A DNA stretch of 64,000 nucleotides from an uncultured Chloroflexia bacterium. GTDB lineage: Bacteria; Chloroflexota; Limnocylindria; Limnocylindrales; CSP1-4. Where the stretch lies: contig CAVRBO010000004.1 of assembly GCA_963719285.1 (NCBI GenBank), positions 842,064 through 906,063 of the forward strand, written 5' to 3'. The notes under the pieces were generated by a model. It was not told where the DNA came from, made no database searches, and was given only the letters and a program-made list of their open reading frames with translations. The translations under genes were made by a program, and so were the position numbers. Of this stretch, positions 1-58,141 are shown one piece after another; the stretch's first letter is position 1; each line of letters opens with the position of its first letter.

Positions 1-1096
1 CGACGATGCCCTGTGCCTCGAGCCAGCGCTCCGCGTCGATCGCGGCCTTGCAGCCGTCGGCGGCGGCCGTGACCGCCTGCCGGTAGCGGTGGTCGTGGAC
101 GTCGCCGGCGATGAACACGCCGTCGATCTTCGAGCCGGTCTCGTCGTGCACGACGAGGTAGCCCTTGGCGTCCACCTCGAGCGCGTCGCGGAAGACGTCG
201 GTGTTCGGGCGGTGGCCGATGGCGATGAACAGCCCCTCCGCGTCCATCGTCCGCAGTTCGTCCGTGACGGTGTCGCGGAGACGGAGGCCCTCCACGTGGG
301 CATCGCCGAGGACCTCCTCGACGGCCGTATTCGTGTGAACCTCGATCTTGGGGTTGTCATGGGCCCGGTCGACCATGATCTTGCTGCCCCGGAAAGCGTC
401 GCGCCGGTGGAGCAGATGGACCTTCGACGCGAACCGGGTCAGGTACGTCGCCTCCTCGAGGGCCGTGTCGCCGCCGCCGACGACCGCGATCTCCTTGTCC
501 CGGAAGAAGAAGCCATCGCACGTGGCGCAGGCCGACACGCCCCGTCCACGGAGGCGCTCTTCGCTCTCCAGGCCGAGCCACATCGCCGACGCGCCGGTCG
601 CGATGATGACCGCCTGGGCGCGGTACTCCTGCCCGCGAGCCCACAGGCCGAAAGGTCGCGAGGAGAAGTCCACCCGGTCGACGTCCACGTCGAAGATGCG
701 CGTCCCGAACCGCTCGGCCTGGGTACGGAAGGCGGCCATGAGGTCCGGACCCTGGATCCCGTCCGGGAAGCCCGGGTAGTTCTCGACGTCGCTCGTGAGC
801 ATGAGCTGACCACCGGCGGCCGAGCCGGCGATGACGATCGGAGAGAGGTTCGCCCGCGCGGCGTAGATCGCGGCGGTGAGCCCGGCCGGCCCCGACCCGA
901 CGATGAGGACCGCCGACTCGAGCGGCCCGGACCCGGCACCGTCCGCGCCGGGTCCCGCGGGGGCGACCGCCGGGGCGCCGAACGCGATGGGCGCGCTCGC
1001 GAACGAGATGGGCGTGGCACCCGCGGGAGTGGCGCCGCCGCCGCCGAAGTCGATGGCGAGGCTCGGCGCCTGTGAGGTCTCGGGACGGTCCGTCAT
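1..1096 (-). CDS. trxB: Thioredoxin-disulfide reductase. The C-terminal few residues are cut by the window edge. It carries a roughly 55 aa Gly/Ala/Pro-rich N-terminal extension.
   Basis: Minus-frame translation gives AVLIVGSGPAGLTAAIYAARANL (FAD Rossmann), the redox-active SACATCDGFFF motif, the NADPH-binding IAVVGGGDTALEEA segment and the C-terminal AADGCKAAIDAERWLEAQG. The ATG is at 1096-1094. Confidence 0.85.
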   Translation of the reverse strand, partial: MTDRPETSQAPSLAIDFGGGGATPAGATPISFASAPIAFGAPAVAPAGPGADGAGSGPLESAVLIVGSGPAGLTAAIYAARANLSPIVIAGSAAGGQLMLTSDVENYPGFPDGIQGPDLMAAFRTQAERFGTRIFDVDVDRVDFSSRPFGLWARGQEYRAQAVIIATGASAMWLGLESEERLRGRGVSACATCDGFFFRDKEIAVVGGGDTALEEATYLTRFASKVHLLHRRDAFRGSKIMVDRAHDNPKIEVHTNTAVEEVLGDAHVEGLRLRDTVTDELRTMDAEGLFIAIGHRPNTDVFRDALEVDAKGYLVVHDETGSKIDGVFIAGDVHDHRYRQAVTAAADGCKAAIDAERWLEAQGIV

Positions 1097-1151
1097 GTCG
1101 TCATCCTAGCATGTCGCCCATACTCCGGGGGAGTATCTACCCGAGGGTCCG

Positions 1152-2046
1152 TCACAGGTCGCGCAGCTGCGGGATGATCGCCGCCCCGATCGTCTCGACC
1201 GTCCCCGGGTCGACCCGATGCGGGCTCAGGATGACGTGCTGGACGCCCGCGTCGGCGAGATCGCCGAAACGGTCAACGAGCAGGGTCGGCGCACTCGCTC
1301 CTCGGGCGCCCTCGGGGGTCATCTCCACGCCCTGCAGGTTCGAGCGCTCGATCTCGTCGTACGGCCGCCCGACCGCGGCGCAGTGCTCGGCCAGGATCCC
1401 GTACTTGCGGTGGACGGTCTCCGGGCCACCGAACACGTTGCATGCGTCGGCGTACTGGGCGACCAGCCGGAGCGTCTTCCGTTCGCCGCCGCCGCCGACC
1501 ATGATCGGCGGGTGGGGCTTCGTGAGCGGGGCCGGGCTGTTGAGCATCCGCGTCGCGTGGACATGATGGCCGTCGAGGGCCGCCTCCGTGCCGCGCTCAC
1601 CGGCCCACATCGCATGGGCGACCCGAAGCGTGTCCTCGAGCAGCTCGAACCGCTCGCCCAGCGGCGGGAAGGCGAACCCGAGGCCGCGCGACTCCTCCTC
1701 GTTCCACGCCGCGCCGATGCCGAGCCAGGCCCGCCCGCCGGACAGGACATCCAGCGTGGTCGCCGACTTGACCCACAGCGCCGGCTGGCGGTAGTGGACG
1801 CCGCCGACCATGAGCCCGAGCCGGGCGCGCGAAGTGTGCGCCGCCAGGTAGCCGAGCGTCGTCCAGCCCTCGAGCATCGGATCGGTCGCCGGGCCGACGC
1901 CGCGGATCTGGAAGAAGTGGTCCATCACCCAGATCGAATCGAACCCCACGTCGTCGGCGATCCGGGCGATGCGCCCGAGGGTGGGGCCGATCATCGCCGG
2001 GCCGCCCGGGAAGTCGAACGCCGGGATCTGCAGGCCGAGCTTCATG
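1152..2046 (-). CDS. LLM-class (luciferase-like) F420-dependent oxidoreductase
   Basis: MKLGLQIPAFDF...IWVMDHFFQ...LGIGAAWNEEE... is typical of the luciferase-like monooxygenase / F420-dependent reductase family. The start is taken at MKLGLQ (ATG 2046-2044) inside the longer ORF 1152..2315. Confidence 0.8.
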
Positions 2047-2127
2047 GCCAGAGGGTAGCGGCGGTCGCGCCGGGACGCGGTCGGCGGCACGTGGCGAGGG
2101 TGGGCGGCGCCGAGGGGGCCGGGCCGG

Positions 2128-2907
2128 TCAGCGGAAGAGGTCGTTGTCCGCGGGGATGAGCGCGTCGGCGATGGTGGCCTCGGCCCGGGACGGGGACGCG
2201 CCGCGGACCAGGGCGACCGGCCGCCGGCCCAGCTTGCCGAGCGCGAGCTCGGCGGCCGAGGCGATCTCGTCGGCGACCGCCCGGATCGTCGTCCGCATGA
2301 CCCGTCCGTCGACATCCTTCGTGGCCCGCAGGTCGTCGAGCGGGGCGATCCCGCTCACGCCGATCGCGACATCGGTGACCCCCCACCGCCAGGGCCGGCC
2401 GAACGTGTCCGACACGATGACCGGGACGTCCACCCCGGTCCGGGCCGAGACGGCCGTCCGGATGGCGGTGGCCGAGGCGTCCGGGTCGCGCGGCAGCAGG
2501 AGGACGATGTCGCCGCTGCCGGGGCCGACATTCGAGGCGTCCACGCCACCGTTCGCGCAGACGAAGCCGTGCGGCGTCTCGGTGATGATCACGCCGTTGC
2601 CCATCCGGACGACCCGACGCGCCTCGCGCAACACGACCTCGATCTGGCGCGGGTCACGGCCCCAGCGCAGGCCGAAGGCCACGGCCTCCGGCCGCGGCTC
2701 GACCGTCCGCAGGTCGACCACCGCTCCCTCCGCCTTCGAGACGATCTTGGACGTGACGACGAGGACGTCGTCCTGGCGCAGGGGCCCGAGGCCGGTGTCC
2801 GCGGCGACCGCGTCGGACAGGGCTCCGGCGATCAGGGCGGGCAGGTCCGTGCCGGCCTCGATCTCGGGCAGGCCGTCGATCGTGAAGACCTCGAGGACCG
2901 CGCCCAC
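2128..2907 (-). CDS. cofE: Coenzyme F420-0:L-glutamate ligase (CofE / FbiB N-terminal domain)
   Basis: The 259 aa product with GLPEIEAGTDLPALI...VLVVTSKIVSKAEG...ETPHGFVCANGGVD matches the CofE family. It lies immediately downstream of cofC and cofD. Confidence 0.85.
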   Translation of the reverse strand: MGAVLEVFTIDGLPEIEAGTDLPALIAGALSDAVAADTGLGPLRQDDVLVVTSKIVSKAEGAVVDLRTVEPRPEAVAFGLRWGRDPRQIEVVLREARRVVRMGNGVIITETPHGFVCANGGVDASNVGPGSGDIVLLLPRDPDASATAIRTAVSARTGVDVPVIVSDTFGRPWRWGVTDVAIGVSGIAPLDDLRATKDVDGRVMRTTIRAVADEIASAAELALGKLGRRPVALVRGASPSRAEATIADALIPADNDLFR

Positions 2908-2909
2908 GA

Positions 2910-3566
2910 TCAGCCTGGCCCGTCCTGCGCGTGGGCCATCTCGTCCACGAGGAGCAGGTCGTCGGGCGTGTCGAGGTCGATCCCGAGAGGCCCGTCGCGC
3001 TCGAGGTAGCGGGCGCCCGCCGCGCGCGCACGTTGCGCGTGCGCCTCGCGGCTGTCCCCACCGAAGGCGCTTGCGATCACATCCGGCGGGCGCAGGAAGA
3101 GCGCGTTGGTGCCCCGCCCGTGGCGGTCCGGCACGAGGGCGACGATCGGGTCGTCGTCCAGGTCCGCTTCGGCGATCAGCGCGTCGAGCGCCGCGCCGTC
3201 CACGAACGGCAGGTCGGCCGGCAGGACCAGGAGCGCCCGGACGCCCTCGGCGAGGGCCAGGTCCCGCGCCTCCTCCACCGCGCAGTTGAGGCCACGCCCG
3301 CGCTGGGGGAGGGCGCGTGCGCCGGCCGACCGGGCCAGCTCGAGCGTCGCCGGGTCCGGACTGACGACGACCACCGAATCGACCCGGCCGGCTGCCCGGG
3401 CGGCGACGATGGTGCCCTCGAGGAGGCGCGTGACCAGGTCGCGCCGCTCTTCCGCGTCGAGTGCCTGGCCGAGCCGCGACTTCGCCTCCTCGAGGCCGCG
3501 GATGGGGATCACGACCATGAGCCGTGGGGCCGCCTCCTCGGTCCGGGGAGGTGCGTCGTCCGGCAT
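2910..3566 (-). CDS. cofC: 2-phospho-L-lactate guanylyltransferase (CofC/FbiD)
   Basis: The 218 aa product with MVVIPIRGLEEAKSRL...LVLPADLPFVDGAALDAL is CofC-like. It is sandwiched between cofD and cofE. Confidence 0.8.
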   Translation of the reverse strand: MPDDAPPRTEEAAPRLMVVIPIRGLEEAKSRLGQALDAEERRDLVTRLLEGTIVAARAAGRVDSVVVVSPDPATLELARSAGARALPQRGRGLNCAVEEARDLALAEGVRALLVLPADLPFVDGAALDALIAEADLDDDPIVALVPDRHGRGTNALFLRPPDVIASAFGGDSREAHAQRARAAGARYLERDGPLGIDLDTPDDLLLVDEMAHAQDGPG

Positions 3567-3569
3567 CGG

Positions 3570-4514
3570 TCAGGCCCGGACGGCTCGGCCGAACGCCAGG
3601 ATCTCCCGGGCGAGTCGCTCGCGCGACGCGTCATCGGTCATGACCGTGTCCGTGATCAGCGTCCGCATGCCGAGCGCTTCCACGTCGGGCCCGAGCGCGG
3701 CGTCCATGGTGTCCAGGACGAACCCGTCGACGACGTCCACGTACAGCCGGGCCACGCCGAGGGCGGTCGGCTCGTGGCCAAGGCTGGCCAGCATCCGGTC
3801 GGCCGGGCCCCTGAGCGCCTTGCCGCCCACGATCGGGCTGACGGCGAGGATCGGGGTCCCGCCGCGGCGCGCGGCCGCGAGCAGGTCCCGGACCCCTCGG
3901 ACGGCGAGGATCGGCCCGATCGACACGATCGGATTCGACGGCGCCACGACGATGGTCTCGGCGAATCCGAGCTCGCCCCGGACGCGGGCCGTCGCCTCCG
4001 CCCGCTCGATCCCGTCGAACCGCACCTCGTGGACCGGCGGCGCCTGGTGGCGGTGGACGAAGTACTCCTGGAACTCGAGCCAGCCGTCGTCCGTGCGGAC
4101 CTGGGTGCGGACCGGGTCGTCGCTCATCGGCAGGATCTTGGCGGCGACGCCGAGGCCGCGCTGGAGCGACAGGCAGACCTCCGTGAGGCGCTCGCCGGCC
4201 TTGAGCCGGGCCGTCCGGACGATGTGGGTCGCGAGGTCGCGGTCGCCGAGACGGAACCAGGTCTCCTCGCGGTAGCGTTCGAGCATCGCCGCCGCGCTGA
4301 AGGTCTCGTCGCGGACTCCCCATCCCTGGACGCGGTCGTCAAGGCCGGCCAGCGTGTACATCACGGTGTCGTGGTCCGGACAGACGAGGAGCCCGTGACG
4401 CTCGAGGTCGTCGGCGGTGTTGACGACCACGGTCAGGTCGTCGCGGACGACCGCCTGGAGCCCGGAGGCGAGCTTCGCCCCGCCGACCCCTCCGGCGAGC
4501 GCGACGACCCGCAC
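3570..4514 (-). CDS. cofD: 2-phospho-L-lactate transferase (CofD/FbiA)
   Basis: (V)RVVALAGGVGGAKLASGL...VVVNTADD...GDRDLATHIVRT...PSNPIVSIGPILAV is CofD-like. I place the start at the GTG at 4514 (DVVRVV), not the upstream ATG at 4637, which lies inside the neighbouring LLM gene. Confidence 0.8.
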   Translation of the reverse strand: MRVVALAGGVGGAKLASGLQAVVRDDLTVVVNTADDLERHGLLVCPDHDTVMYTLAGLDDRVQGWGVRDETFSAAAMLERYREETWFRLGDRDLATHIVRTARLKAGERLTEVCLSLQRGLGVAAKILPMSDDPVRTQVRTDDGWLEFQEYFVHRHQAPPVHEVRFDGIERAEATARVRGELGFAETIVVAPSNPIVSIGPILAVRGVRDLLAAARRGGTPILAVSPIVGGKALRGPADRMLASLGHEPTALGVARLYVDVVDGFVLDTMDAALGPDVEALGMRTLITDTVMTDDASRERLAREILAFGRAVRA

Positions 4515-4518
4515 GACG

Positions 4519-5457
4519 TCAGGCCCCGACCGGGACGCCCGCCAGCGCCGCCCGCAGCTCGGGCAGGCGCTCGATCGTCTCTCGGTCGTACGGTGCCGGC
4601 AGCCGGACCATGACATGCCGGAAGCCGAGCTCGACATAGGGCCGCAGGGCGGCGGCGATGGCGGCGGGTGGGCCGGCCAGGTTGGGGACGCCCGAGATCT
4701 CGGGGATGCCGTTGTGACGGCAGAGGTCCTGGATCGCTCCGCGCGCGGCTTCCTCCGTGTCCCGGATGACGATCGGGAAGCTGATCGTCAGTTCGATCTC
4801 GGCCAGGTCGCGGCCGACCGCCGCGCAGTGGTCGCGCAGGACGCCCAGGTTGCGGGTCGCGTCCTCGATCGTGCCCGAGGTGTTCCAGGCGTCGGCCCGC
4901 AGGGCGACCGTGCGCAGGGTCTTCTTGGGCCCCGAACCGCCGACCAGGATCGGCAGGTGGGGTTGGACGGGCCGCGGTGCGCAGACCGCGTCGTGGATCG
5001 AATAGTGCGCGCCCTCGAAACTGAACCGCTCGCCGTCGAGCAGCCGGCGCATGATCGCGACGGACTCGTCGAGACGGTCGAGCCGCTCGCCGAAGCCGGA
5101 CCCGAAGTCGATGCCGAGCGCGTCGTGCTCGCGGTCGAACCACGCGCCGCCGATGCCGAGGACGGCCCGGCCGTCGCTGATGTGGTCGAGGGTCGTGGCC
5201 AGTTTGGCCGTGTGACCCGGCGGCCGGAACGTGTTCGCCCCGACCATCAGGCCGACCCTGACCCGCCGGGTGACTGCGGCGACCGCCGCCAGGGAGGTCC
5301 AGCCCTCGAAGATCGGCTGCTCCCACGGTCCCTGGATCGCGAGCAGGTGATCCCAGGTCCAGACGCCGTCCCAGCCGGCCGCCTCGGCCGCGACCGCGGC
5401 ATCGCGAAAGCCGACCCACGGGCTCGCCTGCGACCAGAGCTGGGCGCCGAAGCGCAT
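4519..5457 (-). CDS. LLM-class F420-dependent oxidoreductase
   Basis: MRFGAQLWSQ...WDHLLAIQGPWEQPIFEGW...LGIGGAWFDREH is luciferase-like. The start is taken at MRFGAQ (ATG 5457) within the long ORF 4519..6342. Confidence 0.8.
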   Translation of the reverse strand: MRFGAQLWSQASPWVGFRDAAVAAEAAGWDGVWTWDHLLAIQGPWEQPIFEGWTSLAAVAAVTRRVRVGLMVGANTFRPPGHTAKLATTLDHISDGRAVLGIGGAWFDREHDALGIDFGSGFGERLDRLDESVAIMRRLLDGERFSFEGAHYSIHDAVCAPRPVQPHLPILVGGSGPKKTLRTVALRADAWNTSGTIEDATRNLGVLRDHCAAVGRDLAEIELTISFPIVIRDTEEAARGAIQDLCRHNGIPEISGVPNLAGPPAAIAAALRPYVELGFRHVMVRLPAPYDRETIERLPELRAALAGVPVGA

Positions 5458-5480
5458 GGGCCGGTCGCCGGTGGGGGCGT

Positions 5481-6470
5481 TCACGCGTGGAGCTTCGGGA
5501 GGACGTCCCGGCCGAAGACCTCGATCCAGCGGGCCTGATCGCGGCCGACGTTGTGCAGGTAGACCTGGTCGAAGCCCATGTCGAGGAACCTCTGGATGTA
5601 TGCCCGGTGGTCCTCCGGGTCGGCGCTGATGAGCATCCGACCCTCGAAATCCTCGGGCCGGACGAGCTTGGCCATCTGCTCGAAGTCGAGCGGGCTCCTG
5701 ATGTCCTGCTTGGGGAACTTCATCCCGCCATTCGGCCACTCGACCATCGCGTTGCGCATCGCCTCCTCGTCCGTGTCGGCCCACGACAGATGGAGCTGCA
5801 GGATGTACCGGAACTTGGCCGGGTCGTTGCCCGCCTCGACGCAGCCCTCGCGGCACTTCTCGAAGATCATCTCGATCTTCGATTCCGGCGCGCCCACGGT
5901 GATGAGCCCGTCGGCGTACATGCCGGTCTTCTTGGCGGTGATGGGGCCGGCGGTCGCGATGAGGATGGGCGGCGGCTCGGCGGGCATGGTCCACAGGCGC
6001 GTCGTCTCGAGCTTGAAGAACCGGCCGTCGTGCTTGACGTCCTTGCCGCTGAAGAGTTTGCGGATGATCTCGATGGCCTCGAACATCCGGGCGATCCGCT
6101 CGGGTGTCTCGGGCCAGTAGCCGGCCACGACGTGCTCGTTGAGGGCCTCGCCCGAGCCGAGTCCGAGCCAGTGCCGGCCGGGGTACATGGCGGCCAGGGT
6201 GGCCGACGCCTGGGCCACGATCGCCGGGTGCATCCGGAAGCTCGGGCAGGTGACGCCCGGGCCGATGTCGCCGGTCGTCCGGCCGGCGATGGCCGTCATG
6301 ACGTTCCACACGAACGCGGCCTGGCCCTGCTGGGGGACCCATGGCTGGAAGTGGTCGGCGGCCATGACCCCGGAGAAGCCATGCTCCTCGGCGAGCGCCG
6401 AGTACTCGACGACCTCCGTCGGCCCGAACTGTTCGAGCATCGCGGCATAGCCGATCTTCGCCTGCGCCAC
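5481..6470 (-). CDS. fgd: F420-dependent glucose-6-phosphate dehydrogenase
   Basis: MAQAKIGYAAMLEQFGPTEVVEYSALAEEHGFSGVMAADHFQPW... (329 aa) closely resembles mycobacterial Fgd1 at the N-terminus and in overall length. Confidence 0.85.
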   Translation of the reverse strand: MAQAKIGYAAMLEQFGPTEVVEYSALAEEHGFSGVMAADHFQPWVPQQGQAAFVWNVMTAIAGRTTGDIGPGVTCPSFRMHPAIVAQASATLAAMYPGRHWLGLGSGEALNEHVVAGYWPETPERIARMFEAIEIIRKLFSGKDVKHDGRFFKLETTRLWTMPAEPPPILIATAGPITAKKTGMYADGLITVGAPESKIEMIFEKCREGCVEAGNDPAKFRYILQLHLSWADTDEEAMRNAMVEWPNGGMKFPKQDIRSPLDFEQMAKLVRPEDFEGRMLISADPEDHRAYIQRFLDMGFDQVYLHNVGRDQARWIEVFGRDVLPKLHA

Positions 6471-6471
6471 G

Positions 6472-6906
6472 CTAGTCCTCGAGCTCGATGTGCGTGCGTT
6501 CCGGGACGACCCGGAAGCTGATCCGGCGCTGGGCCTCGAACCGGGCGATCGAGACGCGCGCCTCGCGGGGCGACTCGTACGCGCGAGCCATGGCGGCGAT
6601 GTCGGCCTGCGCCGTCGCCTGGTCCTCGACGGGCTCGGCGGTGCCGTCCACGGACACCCAATCGTGTCCGTCGCTCACGGTCAGCGACAGCCGCGGATCG
6701 CGCAGGAGGTTCGTGGGCCAGCGTCGACCCACGAGACTGTTGAGCACGATGGTGTCGTCGTCGAGTCGGTACCAGACGAGCACCTGGCGGGGCCGGCCGT
6801 CGGGGTCGAGCGTGACCACGACCGCGTGGCGGTGGGGCACGCGGAGGAAGTCGAGGACCTCGTCCGGCAGGGCCGCTGCCGGCCCCGCGGTGACTGGTTC
6901 GAGCAT
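6472..6906 (-). CDS. PPOX-class F420-dependent enzyme (pyridoxamine 5'-phosphate oxidase-like split-barrel)
   Basis: The 144 aa product, LDFLRVPHRHAVVVTLDPDGRPRQVLVWYRLDDDTIVLNS, has the typical PNPOx-like fold signature. Its stop overlaps the fgd start. Confidence 0.7.
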   Translation of the reverse strand: MLEPVTAGPAAALPDEVLDFLRVPHRHAVVVTLDPDGRPRQVLVWYRLDDDTIVLNSLVGRRWPTNLLRDPRLSLTVSDGHDWVSVDGTAEPVEDQATAQADIAAMARAYESPREARVSIARFEAQRRISFRVVPERTHIELED

Positions 6907-7223
6907 GACGCGATGGTACGCGAGCGCCCGCCGGACCGCCTCGGCGGTGCTTGAGTCCGCGTTCGGCGGGGTCCGCGTTCCGCGGGGTCCGCTCGGCGGA
7001 CTGCGCGCGAGTGCTTGTCAGATGATCGTCAGGCGGTCATTCGTCACCGATCCGGCGTGCACAGACTGCCACGCTGGTCGGATCGTCGTCAGGTGCCCGC
7101 GTGGAGAGCATCTGACGAGTCCGGAGGCCCCGAACTCCCGATCTTGACGACGAGTGACCTCTCCATGACCACCTGACGAGAACCCGGGTGACCGTGCGCC
7201 TTCGTCCGGGTCCGGTCCGGCTC

Positions 7224-8453
7224 TCAGGCGCCGGCGGCGACCTTGCCGACGCGGGCCGGGACGCGGACGCGCTTCCTGGGGGCCTCGTCCTCTTCGATCT
7301 CCCCGAGCGAGCCGCCCGGCAGGAGGCTCGCCAGCGGTCGAGGCGCGGACGGTTCCGGGGAGGGCTTGCCGAGCAGGTACCCCTGGCCGTAGGTCACGCC
7401 CAGGGAGCGCAGCATGATCAGCTCGCGCCGGGTCTCGATGCCCTCGGCCACGAGCTCCGCGCCGATCCGCCGGCCGAACGAGACGAACGCCTCGACGAGC
7501 GCCTGCTTCGCGTCGCCGCGCTTGTCGCCGATGCCCCGGATGATCTCGCGATCGATCTTGATGATCGACGGCCGCAGCGCGGCGATCAGGGTGAAGCTCG
7601 CGTAGCCGGCGCCCGCGTCGTCGACCGCGAACCCGAAACCGAGCTTGCGCATCTCCCTGACGTGCTTGGCCAGGCCCGACGGGTCGGGGATGTTCATCTG
7701 CTCGGTGCACTCGAGGGTGATCTGGCGGCGGATCAGGCCGTGGGCCGTGACGGCTTCGGCGAACGCGGCGGCGGAGAACGTCGGGCTCAGGAGGCTGGCC
7801 GGCGTGAAGTTGATCGCGTATCGGCGGCGCCGGTCTGCCGGCGCCGGACGGGCCTCGTCGATCGCGGCGATGCGATCGAGGATCCGGGCGACGATGAACT
7901 CGTCGAGCTCCACCGCGCGGTTCGTGGCGATGGCCATCTCGACGAGCTGGGTGATCGATCCCGGGAGGCGCGGCATGTCCGGCCGGAACAGGCACTCCCA
8001 CTCGTGGACCTGGCCGGTCCGGAGGTCCACGATCGGCTGGAAGACGACGCTGTGGTGGAGGTGGAAGAACAGGTCGAGCATCTTCCGATGGGCGACCTCC
8101 ACGGACTGGCCCATGCCGACCCGCTCGGCGATACCGGACTGCTGGACCGCGGCCGCCAGGGCGACGAGGTAGCGGTCCGATTCGGCGATCGACGCGTCGA
8201 CCTGGACGAGGCCGTACTCCGGCGCGTGGGCTTCGCGCGCGATCTCGACGGCGCGAGCCTCGGTGAGCTCCCTGGCCGGCGCGATGAGGCACGTGCCTGA
8301 CTCGAGTTCGAGGAGCCGTCCGCCGGGCATCAGCTGGGCGAGACGGTTCACGAACCGGATGTCGCGAGACCAGAGCAGCGACTCTTCTGGACGTCGGGGG
8401 GGAGTGAAGAAGCGCATGTTCTCGGGCGTGAGTTGAGGTGGTCCACACATCAT
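7224..8453 (-). CDS. EAL-domain protein (putative c-di-GMP phosphodiesterase) with an N-terminal domain of unknown function of about 150 aa
   Basis: The product has the EAL-domain signatures ...ECLFRP... and DDAGAGYASF...IKIDREIIRGI...AEGIETRRE. I trimmed the start to MMCGPP/MRFF (about 8453) inside ORF 7224..8657. Confidence 0.7.
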   Translation of the reverse strand: MMCGPPQLTPENMRFFTPPRRPEESLLWSRDIRFVNRLAQLMPGGRLLELESGTCLIAPARELTEARAVEIAREAHAPEYGLVQVDASIAESDRYLVALAAAVQQSGIAERVGMGQSVEVAHRKMLDLFFHLHHSVVFQPIVDLRTGQVHEWECLFRPDMPRLPGSITQLVEMAIATNRAVELDEFIVARILDRIAAIDEARPAPADRRRRYAINFTPASLLSPTFSAAAFAEAVTAHGLIRRQITLECTEQMNIPDPSGLAKHVREMRKLGFGFAVDDAGAGYASFTLIAALRPSIIKIDREIIRGIGDKRGDAKQALVEAFVSFGRRIGAELVAEGIETRRELIMLRSLGVTYGQGYLLGKPSPEPSAPRPLASLLPGGSLGEIEEDEAPRKRVRVPARVGKVAAGA

Positions 8454-8536
8454 GCGCGGCCTCGCCCGCGGCACGGGTAGGCCGAGGGTACCGGTCCCGG
8501 ATAGGACCATCGTACCGGTCCCGTTCAGGCGGCCGG

Positions 8537-9229
8537 TCAGGCGATCCGTTCCCCCGCTCGGACCGGCACGTCGAGCCGATTCTCCGGGGGCGCGAGCGGG
8601 CACGCCCACTTCGGATCGAAGGCGCATGACGGCTGGTAGCTGAAGTTGAAGTCGCACACCAGGGTCCGCCGGGTGGCGTCGCCACCGAGATCGGCGCTCT
8701 TCGCGGCATCGAGCAGGTAGCGCCCGGCGCCGTAGGTCTCGGTCCCGTTCGTCGCATCGCGGAACGGGACGAACAGGCCGCCCGCGTAGCCCTCCATCCA
8801 GTACAGGGCGAGCCGGCGCGCGCCGTCCGGGAACGGGACGTCGAGGAATCCGATCCGGCGGAACGACATCGTGCCGCCGCCGCTGGTCGGCAGGGCCAGC
8901 GCGAGGCCGAGCATCGGCCGGGCGTTGACCGGGTCCATGCCCGGGGCCGTGGCGGCGGCGACGCTCGGGGCTTCATCGTCCGGCCGGACCTCGAGCTCGA
9001 ACGCGAGGCGGGCGTCATAGCCCCAATAGCGGCCGCGGAAGGTCCGCCGGTCGGCCGGCCGGAGCGGCGACTGGGAGTGCTCCCGGAAGAGCGACTCGCG
9101 TTCGGCGCGCCACAGTTGCCAGGCCGCGACGGGATCGTCCGGATAGAGGAACCGGACATCGGCGTACAGGCGGGCGACGCGGCGTCGCCAGTCGGCGAGC
9201 TCGAGCTCGGTGCCGGTCGTGTCGCTCAC
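8537..9229 (-). CDS. DUF1684 domain-containing protein
   Basis: LELADWRRRVARLYADVR...FNFSYQPSCAFDPKWACPLAPPENRL matches the DUF1684 signature. A GTG start at 9229 (VSDTTGT) is assumed. Confidence 0.6.
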   Translation of the reverse strand: MSDTTGTELELADWRRRVARLYADVRFLYPDDPVAAWQLWRAERESLFREHSQSPLRPADRRTFRGRYWGYDARLAFELEVRPDDEAPSVAAATAPGMDPVNARPMLGLALALPTSGGGTMSFRRIGFLDVPFPDGARRLALYWMEGYAGGLFVPFRDATNGTETYGAGRYLLDAAKSADLGGDATRRTLVCDFNFSYQPSCAFDPKWACPLAPPENRLDVPVRAGERIA

Positions 9230-9408: not shown

Positions 9409-10257
9409 ATGACGGACAGGGCGGAGATCGGCGTGATCGGCGGGTCGGGCTTCTACTCGCTGCTCGAGGACGTGCGCGAGATCAAGGTCGACACGCCGTA
9501 CGGGTCGCCGTCGGACAGCGTCTTCCTGGCTGACGTCGCGGGGCGCAAGGTCGCCTTCCTGCCCCGCCACGGGCGGCGCCACACGATCCCGCCCCATCGC
9601 GTGCCGTACCGGGCGAACGTCTGGGCGCTCCGGTCACTCGGCGTCAAGGCCGTCATCAGCCCCTGCGCGGCGGGCTCGCTCCAGGCTCGGGTCAAGCCCG
9701 GCGACTTCGTCGTGTGCGACCAGTTCGTCGACCGGACCTCCGGACGCGACCACACGTTCTTCGATGGGCCGATCGTGACCCACGTGAGCAGCGCCGAGAT
9801 CTACGACCCGGAACTGCGGCGCATCGCGATCGAGACGATCCGGGCCAATGGCATCCCGGTCCACGAGGCGGGCACGGTCGTCGTCATCCAGGGCCCGCGT
9901 TTCTCGACGAGGTCGGAGTCGAAGTGGTTCAGCGACGCGGGCTGGGAGGTCATCAACATGACCCAGTTCCCCGAGGCGTACCTGTGTCGCGAGCTTGGGA
10001 TGGCGGTCGTGAACATCAGCCTCATCACCGACTACGACGCCGGCGTCATCGAGGGGACCCAGGCCGTCAACGCCCTGAGCGTCCTCGAGGTCTTTGAACT
10101 CAACGCGGCCCGCATCCGCAAGGTCGTCCTCGACATGGTCGCCGCGTTCCCGGCCGATCTCGACGCGCTCGGCGCCGCGGAGGCGCTGCGTTACACCCGC
10201 GGCGACGGCCACGCGGCGTCGGCCGAGGACATCCGCCTGTTCGAGACGAGCCTCTAG
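9409..10257 (+). CDS. mtnP: S-methyl-5'-thioadenosine phosphorylase
   Basis: AEIGVIGGSGFYSL...PRHGRRHTIPPHRVPYRANVWAL...VINMTQFPEAYLCRELGM is MTAP/PNP family. An AGGAGG ribosome-binding site precedes the ATG. Confidence 0.85.
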   Translation: MTDRAEIGVIGGSGFYSLLEDVREIKVDTPYGSPSDSVFLADVAGRKVAFLPRHGRRHTIPPHRVPYRANVWALRSLGVKAVISPCAAGSLQARVKPGDFVVCDQFVDRTSGRDHTFFDGPIVTHVSSAEIYDPELRRIAIETIRANGIPVHEAGTVVVIQGPRFSTRSESKWFSDAGWEVINMTQFPEAYLCRELGMAVVNISLITDYDAGVIEGTQAVNALSVLEVFELNAARIRKVVLDMVAAFPADLDALGAAEALRYTRGDGHAASAEDIRLFETSL

Positions 10258-11099
10258 TGGGCGAGCCGCTGCCCATCGGGGTCAGCATCCGGACCATCCG
10301 GGCCGAGCCCCGCTGGTGGCTCGACAGCGCGCGGCGGCTGGAGGAGGCCGGCTACGCGGGCGTCTGGGCGTGGGACCACTTCATGGGCCGTGGCGACAAG
10401 ACCGTCCCGGTCGTCGAGTCGTGGACGATCCTGGCGGCCACCGCCGGTGCGACCTCGCGGATCACCGTCGGCCCGTTCGTCCTGAATGTCATGAACCGCC
10501 ATCCGGCCGTGCTCGCCCGGATGGCCTCCACGCTCCAGATCGTGAGTGGCGGTCGGTTGATCCTCGGCATCGGCATCGGCGGCCACCCGGACGAGCACGC
10601 GGCACTCGGCATCCCGTTCCCGGAGGCCCCGGAGCGGGTGGCCCGGGTCGAGGAGGCCGTGGCCGTGTTGCGGGCCCTGTGGACGGGCGGTCCGGTCACC
10701 CGGCCCTCGCCCTACTACCCGCTCGACGACGCGTACGCCCGCCCGGTCCCGGATCCGATGCCACGCATCCTCGTGGGTGGCGAGACCGCCGCCGGGGCGC
10801 GACTGGCCGGCCGCATCGGCGATGGCTGGTCGACCTTCGACAACAACTTCGAGGCGAACCTGCCGGCGTACCTCGAGGCGCTCGAGGCGTCCGGCCGGCG
10901 GCGCGCCGACCAGCTCGTCATCGTCGGCTACCAGGGCGACGACTGGCTCGATCACGGCCGCCTGGCCGGGACCGCCTGGATCGAGGATCCGCGCGGGACC
11001 TGGCAGCGCTGGCACGAAGCGGGCGCCGACGGGGCGATCGTCACCGCGAAGTCGGACGCGGACATCGACGCCCTCGTCGGCGCCGTCGAACGCTGGTAG
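10257..11099 (+). CDS. LLM-class F420-dependent oxidoreductase
   Basis: WAWDHFMGRGDKTVPVVESWTILAATA...LILGIGIGGHPDEHAALG is luciferase-like. The GTG start overlaps the mtnP TAG stop by 1 nt. Confidence 0.75.
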   Translation: MGEPLPIGVSIRTIRAEPRWWLDSARRLEEAGYAGVWAWDHFMGRGDKTVPVVESWTILAATAGATSRITVGPFVLNVMNRHPAVLARMASTLQIVSGGRLILGIGIGGHPDEHAALGIPFPEAPERVARVEEAVAVLRALWTGGPVTRPSPYYPLDDAYARPVPDPMPRILVGGETAAGARLAGRIGDGWSTFDNNFEANLPAYLEALEASGRRRADQLVIVGYQGDDWLDHGRLAGTAWIEDPRGTWQRWHEAGADGAIVTAKSDADIDALVGAVERW

Positions 11100-27859: not shown

Positions 27860-28318
27860 GTGAGCGGCGGCCTCGCGCCGGAGGTGCTCGACGCGCTCCT
27901 GCGCGAGACCATCGTCGCCCGTCTCGCCACGATCGACGACGACGGCTACCCCCACATCGTTCCCGTCTGGACAGAGTGGGATGGGTCCGCGATGTGGCTC
28001 GTCGCGCGCGCCCGCTCGGCGTACGCCTCGCACCTCGCCTCCCGCCCGAAGGTCGCCCTGTCGATCGTCCGGGCGGACGCGGCCGACACGCGGGCGCTCA
28101 TCCTCGGCCGGGCCGAGGTGGTGGCCGGCCCGGGTCCGCTCGAGGGCGAGATGGAGGCGATGGCCCGCCGGATGGCCGGCCGCTACGAGGGCGCCGACGG
28201 CGGCCGCTACATCGACGAGTCGCGCGACTGGCCGCGGATCCTCGTCCGGATCGTGCCCGACCGGATCATGTCGTGGGGCGAGCCCGATTGGCACCCCAGG
28301 TACCGCGGGCCGGCCTGA
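27860..28318 (+). CDS. Pyridoxamine 5'-phosphate oxidase-like / PPOX-class F420-dependent enzyme
   Basis: LLRETIVARLATIDDDGYPHIVPVWTEWDGSAMWL is a split-barrel signature. The GTG start lies 11 nt after the MBL stop. Confidence 0.7.
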   Translation: MSGGLAPEVLDALLRETIVARLATIDDDGYPHIVPVWTEWDGSAMWLVARARSAYASHLASRPKVALSIVRADAADTRALILGRAEVVAGPGPLEGEMEAMARRMAGRYEGADGGRYIDESRDWPRILVRIVPDRIMSWGEPDWHPRYRGPA

Positions 28319-40701: not shown

Positions 40702-43299
40702 TCAGGGAACCTCCCGTGTCGAAGCGATGCGACCGCGGAGCGTCGTCCCGCTCTCCGCGATCCGTGCCGCCATCCGCGCCCGCAGGGCCGGGTCCGCGAT
40801 CGTCGCGATGGTCTCGAGCCATCGTACGGTCCCGTCGATGACGGCGACGATCGCCTCGGCGTCGGTCCTGGCGAACAGCGGCCGATCGACGACCTCGACG
40901 TACACCGGCGAGGTGTGGGCGGCCATGCTCGTCAGGTACGCGGACCGGATCTCGTGGTCGCTCCGCGCACGGGCGGCGATCCAGGCGCCGGACGTGACGT
41001 CCACGAGGGCGGACAGCGACAGCTCGGTCGTGCCGCCCGGCGCATCCTCGCGCGCCACGACCCGGCCATTCATGACGAGCTCCACGCAACCCACGATGGG
41101 CTGGGCTGCCCGGACCCGGATCCGGACCTCCAGGCGGCCACCGGAGGCGGGCAGGACGACGACGTCGCCGGGCTCGTGGCCGTCGACCAGCAGCTCGATG
41201 ACCGGCCCGGACGTGGCGAACGTGCGGCCGGCCCGGACCGCGGCCGCCCAGGACTCGAACGTGGCGGCGCCATCGGGATCGAGGCGCGCATACGTCCGGA
41301 CCCCGCCGAGCGGCATCTCGGCCGACATCTTGTCGGTCCCGCCCAGGACCGGGACGCGATAGCCGCAGTTCAGGAAGCGGTACCACTCGTTGACCGTGGG
41401 GTTGTCGAGGCCGGGCGCGAACGTCTGCATCTCGATCGCGTCGATCCGGCCGGCGACGATGTCGGCCGCGATCTCCGCGAAGGGCAGCGGGAAGTGGGCG
41501 CCGACGACGAGCCCACCCTCGGCATGGCAGCGATCGGCCCAGTCGGCCAGCAGCTCGGCGATCGGGGCGCCGATCGGGCCCTCCGGCGCGCCGCCCGACG
41601 CCAGGGGCAGGATCGGCCGGCGCGCCCCCAGCAGCCCCAGGTGGCCCAGCACGTTCTGGCGGTTCTCGGTCCCGACCATCACGACGTGGCGACCGCTCGG
41701 GTCCTGTTGCGAGCCGAAGGCGAGGTCCGCGACGCTGGCGAACTCGTCGCCGAGCTGGGTGGCGAGCAGGTGCACGAACGTGATGTCCTCGGCGGCCGCC
41801 TGGAGCAGGGCCGTTGAGGGCGGGATGAAGTGGACGTGCGGGTCGGCCGTGCGCCACCCCGCGGCGCGCAGGTCGATCGAGCGATCCAGCGCGAACGCCA
41901 GCTCGCGGGTGCCCGGTCCGACCGTCACGGTCGTGCGCACCGGCCGGTGGTCGAAGCCCTTCACGACCTCGACCTCGACGGCGCCCACCGGCAGGTCGAT
42001 CTCGAACCGACCGGGGACGTAGGCGTAGGTGTCGGCTCCGAGGACGAGGCCGGCGCCGGAGTCCTCGTAGATCCCCGTATTGACCTCGTCGCGATGGCCG
42101 AGCGGCGGCAGGTACCGCCCGTCCGCGGCGACGAACCGCACCCGTGCCGGGCTCGCCTCGCCGTCCGCGCCGACCCGCACCTCGACCCGGACGCCGGCAG
42201 CCGCCAGGGGTTCGATCCTGACCCGACCGTCCGGACTGGTCGCTCCGGTCGCCAGGTCCGCCGCGGCGACCGTCCAGTCACCGAGCGCGATCCGCGCGTC
42301 CGGCGCCAGCGCGAGATCGACGACACGGCGCGCTGCGACCTCGCCGTCGGCCGCGTCGGCGCTGGGTGTCGGCCGGCCCCAGCCGATCGGCCCCGGCCCG
42401 TCGTGCGGGCATCCGCGCGGCAGGGGCAGCGGCCTCGACCGGATCGCGATGCCCAGGTCGACCTCGGGGAGCTCCGCGCCGGCGCCCGTGACGAGGATCT
42501 GCCGGCGGGGCGCCAGAACGAGCGGGTCCGCCGTGCCGGCGAACAGGGTGACGGCCGCGATGACGATGTCCGTCCCGGGTCGTCCGCCGCCGAGCGGGAT
42601 GACCCGGAGCGTCGCGGGCTCGGCGACCCCGCCGAGGGGGATCGCGTGGAGCCAGTACGTCGCGTCGTCGTCGGGCGTCGGGACGAAGTCGGCCACGCCG
42701 GTCTGGTGCGCGCCCCACGAGCCGGGCAGGACCGTGAGCGCCCCGCCGTGTCCGGCCGGCGCGTACCGACCGGGGGCCTGGCGGCTGTACGGGCCGCGCC
42801 AGTCGAGCGCCTCATCAGAGCGATGGCCGATGGCCGCGAACGGCACGAACCCCCAGCCGATGATGCCGTCCGCGATCTCGAACCGGCGTCGCACGTCCAC
42901 GGTCCGGGTCTCGCCGCCGGCCAGGCTGAACTCGTAGCGCGCGAGAGGCTCGCCCGTGGGGAGGACCCAGCCCACCGGGTTCCCGGGGCTGCGTTCGCCG
43001 GTGGCGTCGCGCCAGCTGTCGGCGAAATGGGCGATCACGATGTGGCTCGCCGGACCGTGGTCCCGCAGGTCGATGGTCAGCTCATCGCCGGCGACGATCC
43101 AGCGGCGTCCTGCCGCCCGGAACCCCAGGTCGAACGGCAGGCCACGGAACACCGAGGGTCCCTCGGGCAGGCGGGCGAGGGCCTGCTCATAGAGCGGATG
43201 GAAGCGCGCGCCGACCTCCGCGTCAGACGCGTTCCAGGCCGTCGAGAGGTCGACGGAGCGGGCCAGGGGAGTGGCTCGACGCGTGCGCCCGGTCGTCAT
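40702..43299 (-). CDS. Large uncharacterised protein (865 aa). The N-terminal region of about 480 aa is unknown; the C-terminal part is a divergent PHP-like module.
   Basis: The C-terminal motifs WRTADPHVHF, VMVGTENRQNVLGHLGLLG, GGLVVGAHFP and GGTDKMS align with the PHP protein at 36850-38256. This protein is a paralog of the one at 55467-58061. Confidence 0.8.
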   Translation of the reverse strand: MTTGRTRRATPLARSVDLSTAWNASDAEVGARFHPLYEQALARLPEGPSVFRGLPFDLGFRAAGRRWIVAGDELTIDLRDHGPASHIVIAHFADSWRDATGERSPGNPVGWVLPTGEPLARYEFSLAGGETRTVDVRRRFEIADGIIGWGFVPFAAIGHRSDEALDWRGPYSRQAPGRYAPAGHGGALTVLPGSWGAHQTGVADFVPTPDDDATYWLHAIPLGGVAEPATLRVIPLGGGRPGTDIVIAAVTLFAGTADPLVLAPRRQILVTGAGAELPEVDLGIAIRSRPLPLPRGCPHDGPGPIGWGRPTPSADAADGEVAARRVVDLALAPDARIALGDWTVAAADLATGATSPDGRVRIEPLAAAGVRVEVRVGADGEASPARVRFVAADGRYLPPLGHRDEVNTGIYEDSGAGLVLGADTYAYVPGRFEIDLPVGAVEVEVVKGFDHRPVRTTVTVGPGTRELAFALDRSIDLRAAGWRTADPHVHFIPPSTALLQAAAEDITFVHLLATQLGDEFASVADLAFGSQQDPSGRHVVMVGTENRQNVLGHLGLLGARRPILPLASGGAPEGPIGAPIAELLADWADRCHAEGGLVVGAHFPLPFAEIAADIVAGRIDAIEMQTFAPGLDNPTVNEWYRFLNCGYRVPVLGGTDKMSAEMPLGGVRTYARLDPDGAATFESWAAAVRAGRTFATSGPVIELLVDGHEPGDVVVLPASGGRLEVRIRVRAAQPIVGCVELVMNGRVVAREDAPGGTTELSLSALVDVTSGAWIAARARSDHEIRSAYLTSMAAHTSPVYVEVVDRPLFARTDAEAIVAVIDGTVRWLETIATIADPALRARMAARIAESGTTLRGRIASTREVP

Positions 43300-43321
43300 G
43301 CCTGCGGACCCCTCCCGACGA

Positions 43322-43372
43322 TATTGACGTGGGGCGAGGCGCGATGATACCTTCCCTGCAATCGGTTGCGCA
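43322..43372. promoter_or_regulatory. Putative promoter plus LacI-family operator (copy 1)
   Basis: TATTGACG is at 43322-43329. The near-palindrome TGCAATCGGTTGCGCA at 43357-43372 matches the LacI-family consensus TGNAANCGNTTNCA in 13 of 14 positions. It sits immediately upstream of the AAGGAG site and ATG of iolD, and is divergent from the large paralog at 43299. Confidence 0.5.
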
Positions 43373-43382
43373 AGGAGAAAAG

Positions 43383-45269
43383 ATGGAGACCGTCCGGCTG
43401 ACCGTGGGCCAGGCCATCGTGCGTTTCCTTGCCCAGCAGTATGTCGAGCGGGACGGACGCGAGGGCCGCTTCATCGAGGGCGTCTGGGGCATCTTCGGGC
43501 ACGGCAACGTGGCCGGCCTGGGCCAGGCCCTCGAGGAGCTCGGCGACGCCGAGGCGATGCCGTACTACCGACCCCAGAACGAGCAGGCCCAGGTCCACCT
43601 GGCCGCGGCGTTCGCCCGCCACCACAACCGCCTCCGGGCCTATGCCTGCACGTCGTCGGTGGGACCTGGCGCGATGAACATGGTCACCGGTGCCGCCGGG
43701 GCGACCGTCAACCGCATCCCTGTCCTGCTCCTCCCGAGCGACTACTTCGCCAACCGGGCCCCGGATCCGGTCCTCCAGCAGATCGAGCACCCGACCGAGC
43801 GCGATGCGAGCGCCAACGACGCCTTCCGGCCGGTCTCGCGCTTCTTCGACCGGATCTCGCGGCCGGAGCAGCTCCTCGGCTCCCTGCCGGAGGCGTTCCG
43901 TGTCCTCACCGATCCGGCAGAGACGGGAGCGGTGACGATCTCGCTGCCCGAGGACGTCCAGTCCGAGGCGTTCGACTGGCCGACCCGGTTCTTCGGGAAG
44001 CGCGTCTGGCGGGTCCGGCGCCCGCAGCCGGACGCGGCCGACCTGGCCGCCGCGGCGCGGGTCATCGGCGCGTCCAAGGCCCCGGTCATCGTCGTGGGCG
44101 GCGGCACGATCTACTCCGAGGCGACCGACGAGCTCGCCGCGTTCGCGACCCGCTTCGGCATCCCGGTCGTCGAGACCCAGGCCGGCAAGGGCGCCCTGCC
44201 CTGGAACCATCCGATGAACGCCGGGCCGGCCGGCACGAACGGCGGCCTGGCGGCCAACCGGCTGGCCCGCGACGCGGACGTCGTCATCGGCATCGGGACC
44301 CGGATGGGCGACTTCGTCACCGCCTCGCGCACGACCTTCCAGCATCCCGGCGCGACGTTCGTCGGCATCAACATCGGGTCGATGGACGCCCACAAGTGGC
44401 GGGCGATCCCGGTGGTCGCAGACGCTCGCGAAGCGATCCGGGCGCTCGAGGCGCGGCTCACCGCGGACGGCTACGCCGGCACGGCGGCTCCCTATCGCCG
44501 GCGGATCGCGGACCTCAAGCACGAGTGGGACGGCATCGTCGACGGCCTGCGGGCGATCAACGGCGAGCCGGGCGATCTCGGCCAGGCCGAGGTGATCGGC
44601 CTCGTCAACGACGCGGTGGGCGGCCACGCGACCGTCATCTGCGCCGCCGGCAGCCTGCCCGGCGACCTGCTCCGCCTGTGGCGGCCCGAGGACCCCAAGG
44701 CCTACCACGTGGAGTACGGCTTCTCGTGCATGGGTTACGAGATCGTGGCCGGGCTCGGCGTACGCCTGGCCGACCCCGAGCGCGACGTGGTCGTCATGGT
44801 CGGCGACGGGTCGTATCTCATGCTCAACTCGGAGATCGTGACGGCGGTGGCCGAGGGCCTCAAGTTCACGATCGTCGTCCTCGACAACCATGGCTTCCAG
44901 TGCATCCTCGCGCTGCAGCGCCTGGTAGGCGTGCCCGACTTCGGCAACGAGCTCCGCTTCCGCGACCCGGAGCGCAACCGGCTGACCGGGCCGTACGTGC
45001 CGGTGGACTTCAAGGCCCACGCCGAGGCGATGGGCGCCCTCGCGATCCACGCCTGCACGCCCGATGAGCTGCGCGCCGCGCTCGCCCAGGCGAAGGTCGC
45101 CGACCGGGTCACGGTCATCGTCGTCCCGACCGAGCCCGAGAAGCGGATGCCCGGCTTCGAGTCGTGGTGGGACGTGCCGGTCGCGGGCGCGAGCGGACAG
45201 GCCGGCGTGCGGACCGCCCGGAAGGACTACGACAAGAAGCGCGCCGCCCAGCGCATCGACATCCAGTGA
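43383..45269 (+). CDS. iolD: 3D-(3,5/4)-trihydroxycyclohexane-1,2-dione acylhydrolase (thiamine-diphosphate enzyme, IolD-like)
   Basis: METVRLTVGQAIVRFLAQQYVERDG... is a typical IolD N-terminus, with a TPP-binding GDGSYLMLNSE motif. The start is at 43383 (AAGGAG site); the ATG at 43329 from the ORF track was not used. Confidence 0.85.
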   Translation: METVRLTVGQAIVRFLAQQYVERDGREGRFIEGVWGIFGHGNVAGLGQALEELGDAEAMPYYRPQNEQAQVHLAAAFARHHNRLRAYACTSSVGPGAMNMVTGAAGATVNRIPVLLLPSDYFANRAPDPVLQQIEHPTERDASANDAFRPVSRFFDRISRPEQLLGSLPEAFRVLTDPAETGAVTISLPEDVQSEAFDWPTRFFGKRVWRVRRPQPDAADLAAAARVIGASKAPVIVVGGGTIYSEATDELAAFATRFGIPVVETQAGKGALPWNHPMNAGPAGTNGGLAANRLARDADVVIGIGTRMGDFVTASRTTFQHPGATFVGINIGSMDAHKWRAIPVVADAREAIRALEARLTADGYAGTAAPYRRRIADLKHEWDGIVDGLRAINGEPGDLGQAEVIGLVNDAVGGHATVICAAGSLPGDLLRLWRPEDPKAYHVEYGFSCMGYEIVAGLGVRLADPERDVVVMVGDGSYLMLNSEIVTAVAEGLKFTIVVLDNHGFQCILALQRLVGVPDFGNELRFRDPERNRLTGPYVPVDFKAHAEAMGALAIHACTPDELRAALAQAKVADRVTVIVVPTEPEKRMPGFESWWDVPVAGASGQAGVRTARKDYDKKRAAQRIDIQ

Positions 45270-58061: not shown

Positions 58062-58094
58062 CAGGCTGGGTCGGGCCGGCGCGACCGGGCGCTG

Positions 58095-58141
58095 TATTGA
58101 CGGGCCATAGGTCGGACGCTAGCATCGTACAAACGGTTGCA
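58095..58141. promoter_or_regulatory. Putative promoter plus LacI-family operator (copy 3)
   Basis: TATTGACG is at 58095-58102. TACAAACGGTTGCA at 58128-58141 matches TGNAANCGNTTNCA in 13 of 14 positions. It lies in the divergent intergenic region between the large paralog (58061) and the PotA-like ABC operon (58281). Confidence 0.45.

Follow-up and report, generated by a model that had tools for sequence, protein, structure and literature searches.

Gene organization of the locus

One end of the 64-kb stretch of contig CAVRBO010000004.1 analyzed here (the whole stretch is called the window below) carries eight minus-strand genes in the order PPOX, fgd-like, LLM2, cofD, cofC, cofE, LLM1 and trxB. 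Specifically, the genes cofD, cofC and cofE, whose predicted products act in the biosynthesis of cofactor F420, are located among genes for oxidoreductases of F420-dependent families. Both the gene order and this placement are exactly as claimed in an initial annotation made from the sequence of the window. We consider it likely that the region is a late-stage F420 biosynthesis locus of the Chloroflexota class Limnocylindria, working in the manner proposed below.

The GC content of the window is ~72%, and raw lists of open reading frames (ORFs) are therefore crowded by shadow frames. Gene models on the minus strand were built from third-position GC content (GC3), frame plots and translations, and start codons were assigned by homology together with GC3. 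The first gene in the direction of transcription is PPOX (6472..6906; 144 amino acids), which encodes a PPOX-class (FDOR-B) F420-dependent oxidoreductase and would open a predicted operon. It is followed by the fgd-like gene (5481..6470), whose nearest solved relative is the F420-dependent glucose-6-phosphate (G6P) dehydrogenase, Fgd, of Thermomicrobium roseum, and by LLM2 (4519..5457; 312 amino acids), encoding a TIGR03560-family F420-dependent luciferase-like oxidoreductase. The three biosynthetic genes come next: cofD (fbiA; 3570..4514) for the phospho-C3-acid transferase that would convert FO to F420-0 or dehydro-F420-0, cofC (fbiD; 2910..3566) for a guanylyltransferase predicted to be of the phosphoenolpyruvate (PEP)/2-phospholactate (2-PL) type, and cofE (2128..2907; 259 amino acids) for F420-0:gamma-glutamyl ligase. 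The last two genes are LLM1 (1152..2045; 297 amino acids), a second member of the TIGR03560 family, and trxB (<1..1096), for a low-Mr thioredoxin reductase (TrxR) of which a few C-terminal residues are missing at the window edge.

The successive gaps from PPOX to trxB measure 1, 23, 4, 3, 2, 82 and 55 nt, such that all junctions from PPOX to cofE lie within 1-23 nt; cofD begins with a GTG codon 4 nt past the LLM2 stop. No two genes overlap when starts backed by homology and GC3 are used. The several overlapping junctions described previously arise solely from longest-ORF starts (ATG 4637 for cofD and ATG 2315 for LLM1), both of which are at odds with the GC3 frame switch.

Family assignment of the F420 proteins

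Bit scores against NCBIfam profiles were judged by the curated cut-off of each model, with Pfam domains considered alongside. All seven F420-related proteins exceed such a cut-off. CofD scores 318.5 against the 2-phospho-L-lactate transferase equivalog TIGR01819 (cut-off 257.45), CofC scores 161.4 against the guanylyltransferase equivalog TIGR03552 (cut-off 105) and matches structures 7p97, 2i5e and 6bwg in the PDB, and CofE scores 246.3 against the gamma-glutamyl ligase equivalog TIGR01916 (cut-off 180.65) and carries the PF01996 domain. The two luciferase-like proteins, which are 44% identical to each other, both pass the F420-specific profile TIGR03560 (cut-off 231.4), with scores of 269.3 for LLM1 and 234.1 for LLM2, the latter also matching Bac_luciferase. 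Their earlier assignment to F420 families thus stands. The plasmid-borne homologs of LLM1, from Streptomyces and haloarchaea, are unremarkable TIGR03560 genes that give no hint of function. PPOX, which has a Pfam PNPOx_N domain and whose closest solved structure is Rv2991, scores 83.3 against TIGR03618 (cut-off 79.05); its homologs from T. roseum and from the F420 cluster of another Chloroflexota locus (L091) score 103.5 and 106.8, respectively.

Conservation of the cluster in relatives

The relatives of CofD in contigs from one genome per species are nearly all labeled Chloroflexota or Candidatus Limnocylindria/Limnocylindrales (63-88% identity), and the relatives of CofE agree. The organism therefore belongs to the Limnocylindria, and the actinobacterial setting in which the initial annotation had placed the cluster is wrong. 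For comparison, window proteins were searched by tblastn against 80 loci from 80 species-level genomes (contigs from one genome per species), with flanks of up to 10 kb on each side of the cluster as far as the contigs extend. Presence was counted only over loci with enough flank (n=64 upstream and n=48 downstream of cofD).

The common order in these relatives is LLM3(-), MTAP(-), DUF1684, EAL, PPOX, [fgd], [LLM2], cofD, cofC, cofE, LLM1, trxB. Because this order repeats in 80 species-level genomes, the arrangement is not due to chance. On the upstream side, PPOX is present in 59/64 relatives, LLM2 in 51/64 and fgd in 16/64. On the downstream side, cofC is found in 45/48, cofE in 47/48, LLM1 in 41/48 and trxB in 39/48. 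The tight junctions are those of PPOX-(fgd)-LLM2-cofD, with a median gap of 30 bp between LLM2 and cofD, and of cofC-cofE.

A probable Thermomicrobium-type Fgd

The fgd-like protein passes the family profile TIGR03557 (300 versus a cut-off of 210) and fails the Fgd equivalog model TIGR03554 (225.6 versus 420). Its best PDB match is 9hav (E=1e-124). Entries 9hav-9hay represent the hexameric F420-dependent G6P dehydrogenase of T. roseum, as described in a CASP16 paper (PMC12750041). The window protein is 53% identical to this enzyme and 35-37% identical to the FGD1 proteins of mycobacteria and Rhodococcus. It keeps His40, Trp44, Glu109, Lys259 and Arg283 (Mycobacterium tuberculosis numbering), which comprise the catalytic triad and two of the three phosphate-pocket residues. 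The third pocket residue, Lys198, is replaced by Pro, and the T. roseum enzyme has Asn at this position.

The T. roseum Fgd gives the same pattern of profile scores, failing TIGR03554 (206.5), passing TIGR03557 (303) and failing TIGR03885 (349). Because this characterized enzyme also fails, the NCBI equivalog model TIGR03554 does not cover the Chloroflexota type of Fgd. With 53% identity to T. roseum Fgd and a matching score pattern, the fgd call made in the initial annotation is reasonable by homology, and the same homology suggests that the protein is an F420-dependent dehydrogenase specific for G6P.

Fgd is an accessory gene within the lineage, occurring in ~25% of the relatives with enough flank. 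Where it is found (loci L002-L076), its position is nearly always between PPOX and LLM2. Though restricted to about one quarter of the relatives, it is far better conserved (76-89% identity) than its neighbors PPOX (36-55%) and LLM2 (56-75%).

Predicted transcription units

Scans for sigma-70 consensus promoters and for terminators found nothing. An alignment of the sequences upstream of PPOX reveals TACCAT located 5-8 nt (mostly 6 nt) before the start codon in 50/63 sequences, and a TANNNT box at 5-8 nt is present in 63/64 relatives, in 54 of which it reads TACCAT. A box at this spacing is the signature of leaderless genes, in which transcription begins at the start codon. In the window itself, TANNNT followed after 5-8 nt by ATG or GTG occurs 17 times among 3089 ATG/GTG triplets, and 11 of the 17 occurrences fall at the starts of GC3-supported ORFs (1096, 2045, 6906, 9229, 14034, 14170, 19591, 21444, 27091, 31261 and 38256), every one with a 6-nt spacer.

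Three of these starts belong to the cluster. The -10-like boxes are TACCAT before PPOX (6913..6918, minus strand), TACCCT before LLM1 (2052..2057, minus strand) and TAGGAT before trxB (1103..1108, minus strand), each 6 nt from the ATG, whereas no motif is present at fgd, LLM2, cofD, cofC or cofE. In relatives, the motif occurs at 0/79 cofD, 0/69 cofE, 54/73 cofC and 21/76 LLM1 starts; at control genes it is seen at 0/28 EAL and 4/52 DUF1684 starts. The boxes in the window predict a leaderless promoter for a six-gene operon at PPOX and separate leaderless starts at LLM1 and trxB, and the predicted units are [PPOX-fgd-LLM2-cofD-cofC-cofE], [LLM1] and [trxB...]. A single eight-gene unit, as envisaged in the initial annotation, is not supported by this signature. 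More generally, leaderless promoters of this genome can be described by a simple rule (TANNNT, 6 nt, start codon), which helps to refine start codons in the lineage.

Proposed function of the locus

We propose that CofC would activate a C3 acid of the PEP or 2-PL type with GTP, and that CofD would move the activated acid onto FO, made by genes elsewhere, to give F420-0 or dehydro-F420-0. Single-domain CofE would then attach the gamma-glutamyl tail. The three genes would be co-transcribed, on a leaderless mRNA beginning at the PPOX ATG, with genes for three proteins that use or recharge the cofactor: the TIGR03618 PPOX/FDOR-B reductase, the Thermomicrobium-type Fgd, which would reduce F420 with G6P, and the TIGR03560 protein LLM2. 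The second TIGR03560 paralog, LLM1, and the NADPH thioredoxin reductase would follow, each under its own predicted promoter. If so, F420 biosynthesis can be assigned to the Limnocylindria, an abundant uncultured class of soil and freshwater bacteria, and G6P-driven F420 reduction to a subset of its species. Our literature search found no paper naming Limnocylindria (or Ellin6529) together with F420.

Several points weigh against this proposal. LLM2 and PPOX exceed the cut-offs of their families by small margins. The visible part of the pathway is incomplete, with neither a dehydro-F420 reductase nor an FO synthase found nearby. The promoter assignments are inferred from a sequence motif combined with general knowledge of leaderless genes. 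Among the relatives, cofD and cofC are separated by >700 bp in 15/69. Finally, the unrelated flanking genes MTAP, DUF1684, EAL, an ABC exporter and argC are also conserved. Because conservation reaches well past the F420 genes, it reflects in part no more than lineage synteny.

The last two points raise the question of whether the neighborhood is merely an inherited gene order, in which the oxidoreductases and trxB would be mere neighbors, functionally unconnected to cofD, cofC and cofE. Unrelated genes on both sides share the synteny, heterogeneous insertions interrupt the cluster not only between cofD and cofC but also between LLM1 and trxB (>700 bp in 14/49 relatives), and fgd and LLM2 are each missing from some relatives, fgd from most. 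The insertions contain unrelated genes, for transporters, regulators, GGDEF/EAL proteins and peptidases; a check of these insertions for hidden pathway genes found none. We nevertheless consider this explanation unlikely. Gaps of 1-4 nt (23 nt between fgd and LLM2) without any promoter motif link the start of PPOX with fgd, LLM2, cofD, cofC and cofE. Furthermore, a TIGR03618 PPOX adjoins cofE in T. roseum, and an unrelated lineage of 56% GC, with a different gene order, has both a PPOX and a 56%-identical Fgd beside cofD-cofC. With PPOX recurring beside cof genes in two further lineages, one of which also has this Fgd type, each time in a different gene order, the comparison argues for a real functional association of the TIGR03618 PPOX and the Fgd type with the cof genes.

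Predicted C3-acid specificity and the steps not seen near the cluster

F420 is made by three routes, starting from 2-PL, from PEP via dehydro-F420, or from 3-phosphoglycerate (3-PG) (PMC8498797). Ser162 of CofC is diagnostic for the use of 3-PG, as judged from published residue roles (PMC8764529). In the CofC encoded by the window, the Gly of an FGGDS motif aligns to S162 of 7p97 and to G163 of 6bwg, and a Leu occupies the position of L92 in M. tuberculosis. The 3PG-F420 route of the Mycetohabitans type is thus rejected, given the presence of Gly rather than Ser at the diagnostic position, and for the same reason the PEP or 2-PL route is expected.

The dehydro-F420 that would form from PEP is reduced in other bacteria by FbiB's C-terminal domain (FbiB-C) or by the stand-alone reductase FbiE of T. 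roseum (PMC8498797). CofE of the window has a single domain, PF01996, without a nitroreductase C-terminal domain, and the 120 closest CofE relatives listed are likewise all 251-290 amino acids long with PF01996 only. Two tblastn queries, FbiB-C and the FbiE of T. roseum, and an FbiE profile hidden Markov model detected neither FbiE nor FbiB-C in the window or in loci L001-L081, and the positive controls for these searches worked (E=1e-71 to 1e-117). No gene for the dehydro-F420 reductase step is thus visible in the vicinity of the cluster. Likewise, tblastn with the FO synthase proteins CofG, CofH and FbiC gave no match (threshold E<1e-3), either in the window or in the loci of the 80 relatives, and Fno was not found in the window or in the relatives' loci (at most 10 kb per side of the cluster).

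In database searches with FbiE, the best 120 matches that were listed are all at least ~60% identical, whereas Limnocylindria orthologs would be expected at ~45-55%. The named organisms among these listed matches are Thermomicrobiales, Sphaerobacter, Nitrolancea, Ktedonobacteraceae and generic Chloroflexi. Loci followed from FbiE matches were rejected as Limnocylindria on the basis of a GC content of 56-60% or a CofD that is only 48-58% identical.

Might one of the clustered oxidoreductases fill this gap? LLM2, LLM1 or PPOX could carry out a biosynthetic step, either by reducing dehydro-F420-0 in place of FbiE/FbiB-C or by synthesizing 2-phospholactate. Such a role would suit a pathway with a single-domain CofE and a CofC of the PEP/2-PL rather than the 3-PG type, in which FbiE goes undetected both in the window and in the 80 relatives' clusters with flanks of up to 10 kb, despite working controls. 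Three other Chloroflexota lineages have fbiE beside cofD-cofC, and the position directly upstream of cofD, occupied here by LLM2, is that of fbiE in loci L091 and L094. However, FbiE may be encoded in another part of the genome; FO synthase likewise is not found in the neighborhood, and the F420 genes of T. roseum are split over two loci. Moreover, LLM2 is absent from 13/64 relatives, and other lineages possess fbiE alongside PPOX and Fgd. We know of no biochemical precedent for an LLM or PPOX protein performing a step of this kind, and we regard the idea as quite improbable. The same low expectation applies to its broader form, in which Limnocylindria may lack FbiE/FbiB-C altogether and finish F420 by a non-orthologous clustered enzyme, namely a TIGR03560 LLM or a TIGR03618 PPOX.

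Natural fusions of an N-terminal PPOX to a C-terminal FbiE nitroreductase do exist (P0179, P0191, P0193, P0211, P0214, P0236 and P0239, and 8001..9110 in locus L088). As a Rosetta-stone link for the PPOX of the window these fusions were rejected, as the fused PPOX is of another subfamily and gives only partial matches of 28-35% identity. A separate observation concerns a DAGK_cat/YegS-like kinase gene, which two other Chloroflexota lineages have within their cofD-cofC-(fgd)-PPOX/FbiE clusters (L089-L094, at ~5.6-6.7 kb in L091; 6909..7289 in L088). It may encode a kinase of the pathway, for instance one for 2-phospholactate. A kinase gene of this type was not found in the window or in the Limnocylindria loci.

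The thioredoxin reductase gene

TrxB scores 404 against TIGR01292 (cut-off 343). Its CATC redox center and its NADPH-binding motifs GGGDTA and HRRDAFR are intact, and its best PDB matches are the NADPH-dependent TrxRs of mycobacteria and Escherichia coli (E=1e-100 to 1e-103). In the downstream direction, trxB is followed by an ABC exporter gene and argC. A trxBA operon was rejected, given that trxA was not found nearby.

The initial annotation treated trxB as part of the module, in which case it would link F420 to thiol redox. For example, TrxB could be an F420H2-dependent thioredoxin reductase like the DFTR of methanogens. The presence of trxB after LLM1 on the downstream side of most relatives is in keeping with such a link, as are the gene for a thiol peroxidase-like OsmC protein directly after cofE in T. 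roseum and the failure to find a trxA partner near trxB. A DFTR is expected to lose the NADPH-binding motif of low-Mr TrxRs. With GGGDTA and HRRDAFR present, the reading of TrxB as a DFTR was rejected on motifs. In addition, the closest solved structures are NADPH-dependent, the gene has its own predicted promoter, and linkage to LLM1 is loose, with a median gap of 208 bp in relatives besides the long insertions noted above. We therefore hold a role for TrxB in the module to be very unlikely; it is a canonical NADPH-type enzyme and a neighbor, probably not part of the F420 unit. Of the compact redox module put forward initially, what remains is the joining of F420 biosynthesis genes with F420-family oxidoreductases, whereas neither the single eight-gene unit nor the role of trxB is retained.

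TrxB also carries an Ala/Gly/Pro-rich N-terminal extension of ~60 amino acids (917..1096, minus strand), such that PDB alignments start near residue 60. The extension is absent from solved TrxRs, and similar full-length tblastn matches in many relatives suggest that it is conserved.

Comparison with known systems

The kind of arrangement described here is already known, because the Fig. 10 legend of the F420 review lists clusters for F420 biosynthesis in which Fgd, Fno, FDOR and LLHT are neighbors (PMC8498797). A near counterpart is that of T. roseum, whose megaplasmid (NC_011961.1) has the loci cofD-cofC-DMT-nitroreductase (FbiE) and PPOX-cofE-OsmC. T. roseum shares with the window a single-domain CofE (55% identical), CofD (58%), CofC (42%), a TIGR03618 PPOX that abuts cofE (47% identical to the PPOX of the window) and the same Fgd type. 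Its genes, however, are distributed over two loci, with stand-alone FbiE after cofD-cofC, whereas in the window the three cof genes are consecutive and are accompanied by two TIGR03560 LLM genes, and FbiE was not found within 64 kb. The OsmC-family gene after cofE (12714..13145 in L081) loosely parallels the position of trxB, which may be a coincidence.

In mycobacteria, the genes fbiA-fbiB, fbiD, fbiC and fgd1 are expected to support the same chemistry, with a PEP/2-PL-type CofC, CofD, a glutamyl ligase and G6P-driven reduction of F420. Mycobacterial FbiB is a fusion of CofE with a nitroreductase domain, whereas CofE of the window stands alone; for comparison, FbiB of Rhodococcus has 452 amino acids and CofE of the window 259. 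The Fgd of the window also differs from mycobacterial FGD1 in its low identity, its failure against TIGR03554, and the lack of conservation of both Lys198 and His260. In mycobacteria, neither fbiD nor fgd1 is known to be clustered with fbiAB.

Within the Chloroflexota, a soil lineage represented by VBFM01/VBHV01 (56% GC) has the order fbiE-cofD-cofC-fgd-DAGK-PPOX. This cluster resembles that of the window in that cofD-cofC are joined by a TIGR03618 PPOX (38% identical) and an Fgd of the T. roseum type (56% identical). It differs in having fbiE and the DAGK/YegS-like kinase, in lacking cofE and the TIGR03560 LLM genes, and in its CofD, which is only 48% identical. In a lineage of 72% GC, a PPOX::FbiE fusion lies near cofD-cofC; in locus L088 the distance between fusion and cofD-cofC is ~3 kb. 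Clusters on proteobacterial and Thermoleophilia plasmids are similar to that of the window in that a single-domain cofE adjoins cofD, cofC and a gene for an F420-reducing enzyme. There, however, the reducing enzyme is Fno (npdG), and the FO synthase genes (cofGH) are part of the cluster; neither was found here. The DFTR of Methanocaldococcus jannaschii, which is listed in the review (PMC8498797), resembles TrxB in being a low-Mr flavoenzyme of the TrxR fold that is set in an F420 context. In contrast to DFTR, TrxB of the window keeps HRRxxxR and GGGDxA and is most like NADPH-dependent bacterial TrxRs.

Other features of the window

Elsewhere in the window, the initial annotation counted four more F420-family genes. 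We found three and no fourth: an LLM gene at 10257..11099 (140 bits), a PPOX gene at 27860..28318 (74.1 bits) and an LLM gene at 62430..63461 (199 bits). All score under the curated cut-offs, and despite this they are most like F420 families. An Rfam scan of the whole window gave no match.

Upstream of the cluster, the EAL-domain protein (7224..8657, minus strand), which is kept at this place in many relatives, has an N-terminal part of ~200 amino acids without a Pfam match. Farther away, two paralogous ORFs of ~865 amino acids (40702..43470 and 55467..58118, both on the minus strand) are 58% identical and have a strong coding signal. Neither matches Pfam at E<1e-5, and both are surrounded by genes for inositol/sugar catabolism and ABC transport.

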